A stretch of 58,259 nt of DNA, from NCBI GenBank assembly GCA_016204275.1, contig JACQKZ010000012.1, positions 1 through 58,259 of the forward strand, written 5' to 3'. Positions 43,194 through 45,954 of the stretch are shown here, piece after piece (positions within the stretch are counted from its first letter, which is position 1; each line of letters opens with the position of its first letter). A model generated the notes under the pieces. The model was not told the DNA's origin. It ran no database searches and was given only the letters and a program-made list of their open reading frames with translations. Source of the DNA: Nanobdellati archaeon (GTDB lineage: Archaea; Nanobdellota; Nanobdellia; UBA10117). The translations under genes and the position numbers were made by a program.

Positions 43194-44627
43194 ATGGTCG
43201 AACCCGAAAGATTGGAGAAACTCAACGCGCTAATCAAAGCAGGCATCGAGCCGTATCCATACTCATTCGGTAAAACACACGACGCAAAAGACATAGTTGA
43301 AAATTTCCCGAAATACGAGAACCAAAAAGTTTCCGTGGCTGGCCGGCTTATGTCTATCCGCGAGCATGGCAAGCTGGCCTTTGGGGATCTGCAGGACGGC
43401 TCAGGCAGGGTCCAGTTATGGCTCGGCGCGGAAGATTTGGGAAAAGATTTTGATCTTCTGAAATACATAGAAACCGGCGACATAATTGGTGTTCATGGAA
43501 TAGCAACAAAAACAAAGCGCGGCGAAATATCCGTAAAAGCAGATAAGCTGATTCTTCTTACAAAGACCCTGCGCAACTTGCCAAGCCAGTGGTATGGCCT
43601 GAAAGATATCGAAATCAGATACAGGCAAAGATATCTGGATTTAATTATGACTCCGGAACTCAAACAAAATTTTATTATTCGGACAAAAATAGTAGATGCA
43701 ATCCGAGAATTTCTAAATAAAAAAAGTTTTATTGAGGCAGACACGCCAGTCCTGCAGCCAATTTATGGCGGGGCAGCGGCACACCCGTTTGAAACATATT
43801 TGCGCGATTTGAAAATGAAGGTATATCTGCGGACTTCAAATGAATTGTATCTGAAAAGATTAATAGTTGGCGGATTTGAAAAAGTCTATGAATTTTCAAA
43901 AGATTTTAGAAACGAGTCTATAGATACAACACACAATCCTGAATTCACGCAGGTTGAAATCTATGAGTCATATGCGGACAGAGACAAAATCGCAGATTTG
44001 TTTGAAGAACTCTACGCCTTCGTTGCAAAAAAAATCTTGGGAACAACAAAAATAACTTACCAAGGCCATAAAGTTGATTTGAGCAAGTGGAAACGGCTTA
44101 CGATGATAGATGCAATTAAAGAAAAATACAAAATAGACGTACTTGCCATGGATAAAAAAGAATTATTAAATTTCGCGGAAAGTAAAAAGGCAAAAGTATC
44201 TGGCGAAGAGACTGAAGGTGAGATGATTAACGCAATATTTGAAACGTTTGACAAAGAAATAATTCAGCCAACTTTGATAATGGATCATCCAAAAGAAACA
44301 ACGCCGCTTTGCAAGGCCAGCCGAAAAAATCCGAACCTTGTAGAAAGATTTGAGCCGTTCTGCTGCGGCATGGAATTGGGAAATGCCTACTCAGAATTAA
44401 ACGATCCGATTATGCAGAGGAAATTGTTCGAGGGCCAGCTGAAGGGACGGGGTGCTGAAAAAGAATCATGGACATGCGAATTGGATGAAGATTTTCTGCG
44501 CGCGATGGAGTATGGCATGCCCCCAACAGGCGGAATAGGTATAGCAATTGACAGGCTGGCAATGTTATTAACAAACAGCGTATCAATACGCGATGTTATC
44601 CTGTTTCCGTTTATGTCGCGAGAGTAG
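43194..44627 (+). CDS. lysS: lysyl-tRNA synthetase, class II
   Basis: Motifs [28 protein letters not shown] and [15 protein letters not shown]. 477 aa. Confidence 0.9.
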   Translation: [477 protein letters not shown]

Positions 44628-44669
44628 CGAGTGACGTTAGAAACTCAAGGAGTTTTATTATATTAGCGT

Positions 44670-45131
44670 TTAAATTAATCCATAATGTCCTATCTTTATA
44701 TCATCTGGTGTTGCTCTTCGCGCGCTAAACATTATGCCCAATCCAAATTCGGCGCACTCTTCTAGGAACAATTTCGCGCGCCAATAGTGTGGTAAATCTT
44801 GCTTTTTAACCTTAAAATCCCAATCCGCGATTTTCGCCATCTCCTTTACTTTTTTTGGATTCCAGATGGCGCTGCGAGTCTTTTCACTTTTTCCCCACGA
44901 TTTTTCTTTTTCTATTTTCCAATTTGTAGCTTTTCTAAATATGCGCATCGCCACATTATTCCGATCTTCCAGGGACCGTATTTTGTCATTCTTTATTAGT
45001 TTACTATGTTCTTTGGCTAGTTCTTCCCACGCTTGTGGCGTTGGCAACGCCAATCTAAAGTCTATAGGTAAAAATGCACTTGCGTCCATACCTATAAATT
45101 GAATTTCATTGGCGTTTATCATTTTATTCAA
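44670..45131 (-). CDS. cassette protein A (paralog of the next ORF), unknown function
   Basis: 153 aa. It shares IGMDASAF.., ..IWNPKKVKEMAKIADWDFKV.. and ..YWRAKLFLEECAEFGLGIMF with the upstream ORF. Confidence 0.6.
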   Translation of the reverse strand: MNKMINANEIQFIGMDASAFLPIDFRLALPTPQAWEELAKEHSKLIKNDKIRSLEDRNNVAMRIFRKATNWKIEKEKSWGKSEKTRSAIWNPKKVKEMAKIADWDFKVKKQDLPHYWRAKLFLEECAEFGLGIMFSARRATPDDIKIGHYGLI

Positions 45132-45498
45132 AGTATATTCCTAAATTTAGTTCTGCACATAACTGTAAAAACCACCTTGCTGACCAATATGTGCTTATCT
45201 CGACCACATCAATTTCAAAATTCCAGTTTGCGTTTTTGTTTATTTCCCTTACAGTTTTACTAGACCACACCACAGCTCCAGGATTTCTCCGGTCTAATAT
45301 TTTTTTGCCTATCGCTGGTTCTAGTATGTGCCACCCATGCAGACTACAATCTTCTAGTTGGAAATCTGGATCAATTCCATTTGATTCTAATTTTTTACGA
45401 AGTGCCTCAAACTTAACTTTATATTTCTTACCTACGTCAAAGCCCTTATGCCACACTTCACTAGGTTTACAGTCAAATGCATGTGCGCTTATTCCCAT
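45124..45498 (-). CDS. cassette protein B (paralog of ORF A), unknown function
   Basis: Trimmed to MGISAHAF. Contains ..VWSSKTVREINKNANWNFEI.. and ..YWSARWFLQLCAELNLGIYFE. 8-nt overlap with ORF A. Confidence 0.6.
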   Translation of the reverse strand: MGISAHAFDCKPSEVWHKGFDVGKKYKVKFEALRKKLESNGIDPDFQLEDCSLHGWHILEPAIGKKILDRRNPGAVVWSSKTVREINKNANWNFEIDVVEISTYWSARWFLQLCAELNLGIYFE

Positions 45499-45809
45499 TT
45501 TAGCTTTTCTCCTTTTGTAAAATCTGTGTGCCCGCACCTTTCACACCAAAAGTGTATCGAGCCATCCGAATTATTGGAATATGTTACTGTTGTACCGCTG
45601 CCCAGACCGCCACAATTTTTGCAAGGCGCAGTACAACAAATAATCTTAAATTTATATGCTTTATGTTTTTCTATTTTTTGGTATGTATTTTTAATCTCTT
45701 TTATCTCTTTAACACTTAGTTTTTTCCCGTAAAACTTTTCTTGTTTTTGTATTATTAATCCAACTTCGTAGTTGCGTATTTTCTTTAGTGCGTTCTTATA
45801 GGGTTTCAT
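45489..45809 (-). CDS. cassette zinc-ribbon protein, unknown function
   Basis: 106 aa with a Lys-rich N-terminus. Cys cluster CCTAPCKNCGG ... FWCERCGH. Overlaps ORF B. Confidence 0.55.
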   Translation of the reverse strand: MKPYKNALKKIRNYEVGLIIQKQEKFYGKKLSVKEIKEIKNTYQKIEKHKAYKFKIICCTAPCKNCGGLGSGTTVTYSNNSDGSIHFWCERCGHTDFTKGEKLKWE

Positions 45810-45840
45810 TTTATCTTGTTATTTATCAAGACTTTAAAAC

Positions 45841-45954
45841 CTTGCGCCCTCTGGCGGGCAGGGCATTGGGATTGACAGGCTTGTGATGCTGTTGACAAAT
45901 CAGGCTTCGATTAAGGAAGTGATATTTTTACCTTTTATGGGACCAGAGAAATAA
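45841..45954 (+). pseudogene. lysS: orphan fragment encoding a LysRS C-terminus (displaced lysS 3' end)
   Basis: It translates as [37 protein letters not shown]-stop. This aligns with [36 protein letters not shown]-stop of lysS. There is an in-frame stop just upstream and no start codon. Confidence 0.8.

Follow-up and report, generated by a model that had tools for sequence, protein, structure and literature searches.

How did an intact aminoacyl-tRNA synthetase gene come to be followed, 1.2 kb downstream, by a second copy of its own 3′ end? The question is raised by lysS, encoding a class II lysyl-tRNA synthetase (LysRS), on contig JACQKZ010000012.1 of the Nanobdellati archaeon assembly GCA_016204275.1 (58,259 nt; this whole stretch of DNA is referred to here as the window). 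The window is a fragment of the chromosome of a DPANN archaeon (Woesearchaeota/Nanoarchaeia-like), with genes for TFIIB, an Sm-like protein, the alpha and beta subunits of PheRS, Trm1 and an archaeal D-aminoacyl-tRNA deacylase, and the best matches to its LysRS in the genome collection are Woesearchaeota/Nanoarchaeia metagenome-assembled genomes (≤55% identity). The intact lysS (43,194–44,627, + strand; 477 aa) covers positions 2–307 of 308 in PF00152 and also matches PF01336 (Pfam), and three AT-rich minus-strand ORFs lie between it and the duplicated end. A first-pass annotation had seen in this arrangement the attL/attR architecture of a 1.3-kb element that lacks a recognizable integrase and replaces the 3′ end of its target gene. 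As described below, the intact gene is a chimera of two lysS lineages and the downstream copy is the displaced tail of the resident gene. On balance, the structure is best read as the replacement of the middle of the resident lysS by a single foreign block of ~2.25 kb, with an anchor in homologous lysS sequence on the left and a non-homologous joint on the right.

The orphan lysS 3′ end

Searching with the LysRS protein identified two groups of relatives, referred to here as resident type and donor type. Proteins of the resident type (P0006, P0008–P0012) have a C-terminus ending (A/S)SIKEVIFFPFMGPEK, which is the sequence of the orphan fragment, and the N-terminus of one of them (P0006) is almost identical to that of the window LysRS. 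In the donor type (P0003, P0005 and relatives) the C-terminus is like that of the intact gene in the window, with P0003 continuing ...SIRDV... The orphan fragment (45,841–45,954, + strand) is untranslated and encodes 37 aa and a stop codon, corresponding to lysS codons ~441–477, with an in-frame stop codon directly before it. That it derives from a lysS 3′ end, as first annotated, was confirmed by tblastn against the window (65% identity over 34 aa to LysRS residues 444–477, E = 1e-8), in which it was the sole second lysS-like stretch. As this search returned the intact gene and the 34-aa tail only, resident-type lysS codons ~148–440 are missing from the window.

The orphan fragment is the resident lysS gene’s own tail, since it is 82–84% identical at the nt level to the corresponding genes of two related loci (L085, 82%; L086, 84%), and since the region following it, including the glutamine synthetase gene (GS), is collinear with L085 (45,955–47,070, + strand, matching L085 3,247–4,332, intergenic stretch included). 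In L085, lysS runs straight into the intergenic region that follows the orphan fragment in the window. Identity to the window’s own lysS 3′ end is only 62%, and to a donor-type locus (L082) 58%. A tandem duplication of lysS, named at the outset as the alternative to an integrated element, was rejected on these values, the fragment being nearer to its orthologs in other genomes than to the gene upstream of it. The encoded protein differs from the C-terminus of P0009 (from L085) at 1 of 33 residues while nt identity is only 82%, which upholds the initial view that the two lysS ends diverged as working genes in different lineages. Clear resident-type homology starts at 45,847–45,853, and at this left edge the fragment and the intact gene have only GGCGG (~5 nt) in common. 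A possible further degenerate lysS remnant at 45,822–45,852 is marginal (0/300 shuffles) and was seen against L085 only.

Uninterrupted sites, which had been proposed as a check on the integrated element, are present in three related loci. The gene order is methyltransferase-lysS-GS in L085, while in L086 lysS is directly followed by an exonuclease gene (91% nt identity to window positions 47,061–47,469) and in L084 by pheT. Such sites are equally expected under recombination and under integration of a site-specific element.

The chimeric lysS gene and the 11-nt run

Amino-acid identities to the window lysS were taken from a codon-aligned comparison of genes, and mosaic structure from sliding identity and informative sites. 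Over residues 1–132 the closest locus is L084 (91% aa, 81–93% nt identity), followed by L085 and L086 (79–80% aa) and then L082 (67% aa). Over residues 148–477 the order is reversed, with L082 at 82% aa identity, L085 and L086 at 64% and L084 at 63%. Residue 132 is the last informative position of resident type and residue 148 the first that is consistently of donor type. A Fisher scan of 307 informative nt sites placed the breakpoint at 43,565–43,568 (p = 2.4e-18), the resident:donor counts being 71:10 on its left and 74:152 on its right. The intact lysS is thus a chimera of resident codons 1–132 (43,194–43,590, + strand; identity to L084 and P0006) and donor-type codons ~148–477 from a lower-GC lineage (43,640–44,627, + strand; identity to L082 and P0003), joined within a left recombination interval (43,565–43,640, + strand) that corresponds to the conserved WYGLKD.E.RYRQRY block.

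Base composition changes at the same place. G+C content drops from 0.49 to 0.38 at the left breakpoint and is 0.393 in the foreign part of lysS, within the range of loci of the donor-type lineage (0.38–0.42). G+C content at third codon positions falls from 0.515 in the 5′ part of lysS to 0.389 in the foreign part, and both measures remain low across the three ORFs (0.30–0.37 at third positions); the orphan fragment has a value of 0.514. The interval between the two lysS copies is AT-rich, as first described (G+C 0.36 vs 0.44 for the whole window), but the low-GC tract begins inside lysS at ~43.55 kb, not at its stop codon. The foreign block therefore spans ~2.25 kb (~43.6–45.84 kb), not 1.3 kb. 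The original proposal that foreign DNA supplies the functional 3′ end of lysS stands, as does the survival of the displaced resident end downstream; the dimensions do not, as the foreign tract starts at codons 133–147.

The resident part of lysS is itself uneven. Codons 16–90 (43,240–43,460) have 90–93% nt identity to L084, compared with 81–84% for the neighboring methyltransferase, TFIIB, S8e and LSM genes, and L086 reaches 90% nt identity in codons 46–105 only, which suggests further, older recombination tracts. A deeper exchange may also have occurred. Many archaea use a class I LysRS. In this DPANN group the LysRS is of class II and ~50% identical to LysRS of Gemmatimonadota, Latescibacterota and Zixibacteria (L008, L009, L016 and L022), which hints at an older transfer of lysS between domains.

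The run of 11 identical nt that had been taken as the core of the attachment sites, ATTGACAGGCT, is indeed present in both lysS ends (44,548–44,558 and 45,866–45,876). Its length is not above expectation, however, because alignments of lysS 3′ ends between genomes contain, in the same register, identical stretches of 5–23 nt. The run falls within the conserved motif-3 codons of lysS, and the intact gene has the same 11 nt in common with L085; further downstream it shares 17 nt with L084. On the left side of the run the intact gene carries the donor-type sequence GGCGGAATAGGTATAGCA (L082 counterpart, GGCGGAATAGGCATCGCC), and the orphan fragment the resident-type sequence GGCGGGCAGGGCATTGGG (L085 counterpart, GGCGGGCAGGGAATCGGG). 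No crossover can be placed at the core, because on both sides of it the fragment is continuously of resident type and the gene continuously of donor type. Had a crossover occurred here, the bases left of the core should be of host type in the gene and of element type in the fragment, and the reverse is observed. Identity of the intact LysRS to L082 does not change across the core (82% aa over residues 148–440, 81% over 441–477), and the foreign tract starts ~0.95 kb upstream of it. The core was thus rejected as a crossover site on both run length and the continuity of the flanking sequence types, and with it the attL/attR architecture.

Other hallmarks of an integrated element were also sought. 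No terminal inverted or direct repeats beyond chance were found at the cassette edges. That no integrase is evident holds true, with no recombinase or integrase match for any of the three ORFs in Pfam, PHROGs, NCBIfam or PADLOC and no integrase among the screened neighboring genes, where every neighbor with a family match is a housekeeping gene. None of 80 related loci (GTDB lysS loci) has a duplicated lysS 3′ end. On core, integrase, boundary and additional copies alike, the locus does not behave as an attL/attR element. An unrecognized recombinase, one of the two options originally offered for the missing integrase, is not needed to explain the structure, for which general recombination gives a better account.

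An element could be retained by separating the cassette from the chimera in time. A 1.3-kb integrase-less cassette, mobilized in trans in the manner of a cis-mobilizable element (CIME) or satellite, would then have integrated site-specifically near the 3′ end of the resident lysS, supplying its own replacement end, and a later, separate tract of homologous recombination would have converted codons ~148 onward to the donor type. Tyrosine-integrase elements are known to target the 3′ ends of housekeeping genes, lysS among them (PMC4701971), there are several lysS recombination tracts in the clade, and at its very 3′ end (FPFMSRE) the intact gene contains the 17-nt run common with L084 and not with L082. 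Such a history is nevertheless improbable: the continuous resident and donor flanks make a crossover at the 11-nt core impossible, the ~5 nt common at the true left edge of the fragment is all that remains in its place, identity to L082 has no discontinuity across the core, and neither an integrase in the screened parts of the window nor a second copy of the cassette, wherever searched, was found.

The cassette genes and the origin of the block

The three cassette genes, ORF1 (44,670–45,131), ORF2 (45,124–45,498; called as an ORF to 45,537) and ORF3 (45,489–45,809), all lie on the minus strand. ORF1 and ORF2 are paralogs (41% identity between the C-terminal 49 aa of ORF1 and ORF2) belonging to a family of small proteins, for which an exhaustive profile search gave 77 representatives of 110–140 aa. 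The family signature consists of an N-terminal MGWDAxA and a C-terminal W..VK.L...A.WDF....AYWSAR.FLETCA.L.LGI.FSW. ORF1 is a divergent member of this family in the alignment (MGWDA...YWSAR.FLETCA), with an 18-aa C-terminal extension. Because the family shares the N-terminal MGWDAxA, the ATG at 45,498 is the more probable start of ORF2, giving a protein of 124 aa. Members with retrievable context sit in tailed-phage or prophage regions, adjoining RecT-like, exonuclease and SNF2 genes (L081, 7,734–8,147), terminase and amidase genes (L090, 4,422–4,775), PD-(D/E)XK and helicase genes (L092, 2,160–2,543) or portal, small terminase and VapE genes (L093, 8,001–8,387).

No function could be assigned to ORF1, ORF2 or ORF3, with nothing significant in Pfam, PHROGs, NCBIfam, PADLOC, a PDB sequence search or two Foldseek libraries. 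No Pfam or PHROG model covers the ORF1/ORF2 family, and the two window members match no NCBIfam or PADLOC model. The AlphaFold model of ORF2 is confident (pLDDT 90) and has no significant structural neighbor in either Foldseek library. Its best matches have the DMP12/YfbM fold (E = 0.05, probability 0.77, TM 0.42–0.45, 10% identity) and its best match in the viral library is a phiM9 protein (E = 0.12). Like the Neisseria DNA-mimic protein DMP12 and E. coli YfbM, the ORF2 model is a small alpha/beta structure of similar size, a similarity that is not significant and justifies no functional inference for ORF1 or ORF2. This family is thus phage-associated, confidently folded and unannotated in every library searched, and is represented here, in an archaeon, by two divergent copies in tandem.

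ORF3 (106 aa) consists of a helical hairpin at the N-terminus followed by a CxxC...CxxC zinc ribbon, and its single-sequence structure model is poor. No Pfam or NCBIfam model matches it above the curated cut-off, and PHROGs and PADLOC gave nothing at E ≤ 0.01. The only weak match, to PF01921 (class I LysRS; positions 151–222, 18 bits, E = 0.0014, cut-off 27) was considered and set aside as probably a zinc-ribbon resemblance, being below the cut-off and with no LysRS among the results of the PDB sequence search. Nothing suggests a recombinase in any of the three ORFs.

Searches for the cassette elsewhere found no second copy in protein databases (ORF1 and the ORF1/ORF2 profile), IMG/VR, JGI metagenome contigs (ORF3), GenBank phages (ORF2 and ORF3) or PLSDB. 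A word-indexed search of 5.8 billion proteins returned ORF1 itself alone as a close match, and there was none in IMG/VR; ORF2 had no match in GenBank phages; relatives of ORF3 were absent from IMG/VR, JGI metagenome contigs and GenBank phages; and the whole block, used as a DNA query against PLSDB, gave conserved lysS matches only. All three donor-type loci examined (L082, L087, L089) lack the cassette downstream of lysS, and no donor carrying lysS followed by ORF1–ORF3 was found among the loci and proteins searched. Sequences flanking the junctions (44,628–44,760 and 45,760–45,852) have no homology to any fetched locus, and a metagenome scan with the neighboring exonuclease gene gave matches of ≤63% identity, none adjoining lysS.

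The simplest history, and the one to which we lean, is that an aminoacyl-tRNA synthetase gene was partly displaced in situ, by a process of the homology-facilitated illegitimate recombination (HFIR) type. Incoming linear DNA from a lower-GC relative would have carried the 3′ 70% of a lysS allele together with three small downstream genes. Homologous recombination in the conserved codons 133–147 of lysS would account for the left end and for an in-frame, full-length hybrid synthetase, and the right end may have joined the resident gene near codon 441 with no long homologous stretch. The process would have removed resident codons ~148–440 and left the last ~36 codons as the untranslated orphan. 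The three cassette genes would then be passengers of viral ancestry rather than agents of integration. Two parts of this history are inferred, the joint arrival of foreign lysS sequence and cassette and the illegitimate character of the right-hand joint, as none of the donor-type loci L082, L087 and L089 has the cassette.

Several points weigh against this history. Co-arrival of the foreign lysS part and the cassette is argued from their adjacency and similar low GC, and the right-hand joint can be called only putatively illegitimate. Further mosaicism of lysS in the clade makes it plausible that the lysS tract was acquired independently. The structure is known from one metagenomic contig: P0001 and P0002 both occur on a single contig, and so do the hybrid LysRS and ORF1. 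To our knowledge, HFIR has not been demonstrated in DPANN archaea.

The single-contig records of the hybrid LysRS and ORF1 also bear on whether the hybrid gene exists in any cell. In a metagenome-assembled sequence, two co-occurring strains or species could be joined at conserved lysS k-mers, and both junctions do lie in the most conserved parts of lysS. The two types are only ~60–75% identical at the nt level near the junctions, however, making shared k-mers of assembler length unlikely; the junction between cassette and lysS tail requires a real genome in which the cassette lies beside a lysS remnant; and the contig then rejoins resident sequence in full synteny (fragment, intergenic region and GS). 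An assembly artefact is highly improbable.

The phage and prophage associations of the ORF1/ORF2 family leave room for a decayed element, which we consider rather unlikely. A circular virus or plasmid carrying part of lysS (codons ~140–477) would have integrated at the codon 133–147 block, site-specifically or by a Campbell-type event, and a later deletion would have removed the rest of it, along with any integrase and resident codons ~148–440, leaving three genes and the resident tail. This would account for the missing integrase; strong conservation, such as that of the block holding the left boundary, is typical of integration targets; and the region downstream of lysS is prone to insertion and deletion, differing among L084, L085 and L086. 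Two events are required, however, where one suffices, and no att repeat, element remnant or integrase fragment was detected. The viral, metagenome, phage (ORF2, ORF3) and plasmid (DNA) searches described above returned no related element, and the 80 related loci, as noted, no other lysS 3′ duplication.

A more speculative variant, in our view doubtful, is that the 2.25-kb block is the remnant of a DPANN virus or plasmid, or a minimal version of one that still functions, with a large piece of an essential synthetase gene as its homology arm. Such an element would enter divergent hosts through their own recombination at a universally conserved lysS block, always regenerating a functional gene, or alternatively through an unrecognized recombinase among the paralogous ORF1 and ORF2 or the zinc-ribbon ORF3. 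If true, this would be an integrase-free integration strategy so far undescribed for archaeal mobile elements.

Neighboring features and comparison with known systems

Downstream of lysS lies a hotspot of gene-content change. In the window ~5.7 kb separate lysS from pheT (44,628–50,344), and the content of the corresponding region differs in L084, L085 and L086. GS (46,030–47,070; 346 aa, with Gln-synt_N and Gln-synt_C domains) has a G+C content of 0.54 vs 0.44 for the window. It is found downstream of lysS in L085 and is missing there in the closer relatives L086 and L084, and probably reflects a separate gain or loss at this variable position. Upstream of lysS, the region 41,937–42,640 contains two tRNA-like 5′ halves (at 41,937 and 42,445), each followed by a long insert with a common 30-nt repeat (42,213–42,242 and 42,506–42,535; 97% identical) and ending in similar 3′ sequences (42,107–42,127 and 42,610–42,630). 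These were missed by ARAGORN and by Rfam at threshold (Rfam tRNA, 19 bits at 41,937–42,007), and pieces of the region are ~94% identical to L084, inverted relative to the flanking genes. They are probable intron-containing tRNA genes.

If one foreign block was exchanged as proposed, the locus preserves a clean and datable scar left by horizontal transfer into a DPANN archaeon, in which an essential synthetase gene became an intragenic hybrid of two lineages, genes of a virus-associated family came in on the same piece of DNA, and the tail of the resident gene was preserved as a marker of the previous state. Conserved housekeeping genes could thus act as recombination anchors that import unrelated genes into small-genome symbionts. 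The locus also carries a caution, as a duplicated gene end whose two copies differ synonymously and share a short identical run mimics attL/attR, and general recombination fits better here.

Among known processes, HFIR, in which one-sided homology anchors the incoming DNA, is known from naturally competent bacteria and from conjugation in E. coli (PMC3240628). The present locus resembles it in that one boundary of the foreign block falls within homologous lysS sequence (the WYGLKD.E.RYRQRY block), the other boundary appears to lack extended homology, the recipient DNA between the joints is deleted and non-homologous passenger genes are imported. It differs in that the event is deduced from sequence alone, in a DPANN archaeon, and in that the anchor is a divergent allele (~70–75% nt identity) rather than near-identical DNA.

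Transfer of aminoacyl-tRNA synthetase genes may proceed by in-situ xenologous displacement, in which divergent alleles are exchanged by recombination. Here too a divergent allele has taken the place of the resident one, at the same locus and through recombination within conserved sequence, although the displacement is partial, giving an intragenic hybrid with a visible orphan 3′ remnant and three unrelated genes alongside.

Site-specific elements that replace the 3′ end of their target offer the third comparison. Phage 21/e14 integrates in the 3′ end of icd and supplies a replacement end. Streptococcal integrative and conjugative elements (ICEs) with a tyrosine integrase target the 3′ end of lysS itself, generating direct repeats of 13–17 bp (PMC4701971). 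As with such elements, the foreign 3′ end keeps the gene intact, the displaced resident end lies on the far side and the two copies differ mainly at synonymous sites. Unlike them, the locus has no integrase that could be found, no att core above chance and no other copies found; its foreign DNA starts ~0.95 kb upstream of the duplicated region and its cargo is only 1.2 kb. The locus therefore falls outside the class of lysS-targeting ICEs and behaves like a one-sided homologous replacement, or in-situ synthetase displacement. It looks like a new and well-preserved case of a known process, in a lineage that has been little studied and with a passenger gene family, rather than a new kind of mobile element.

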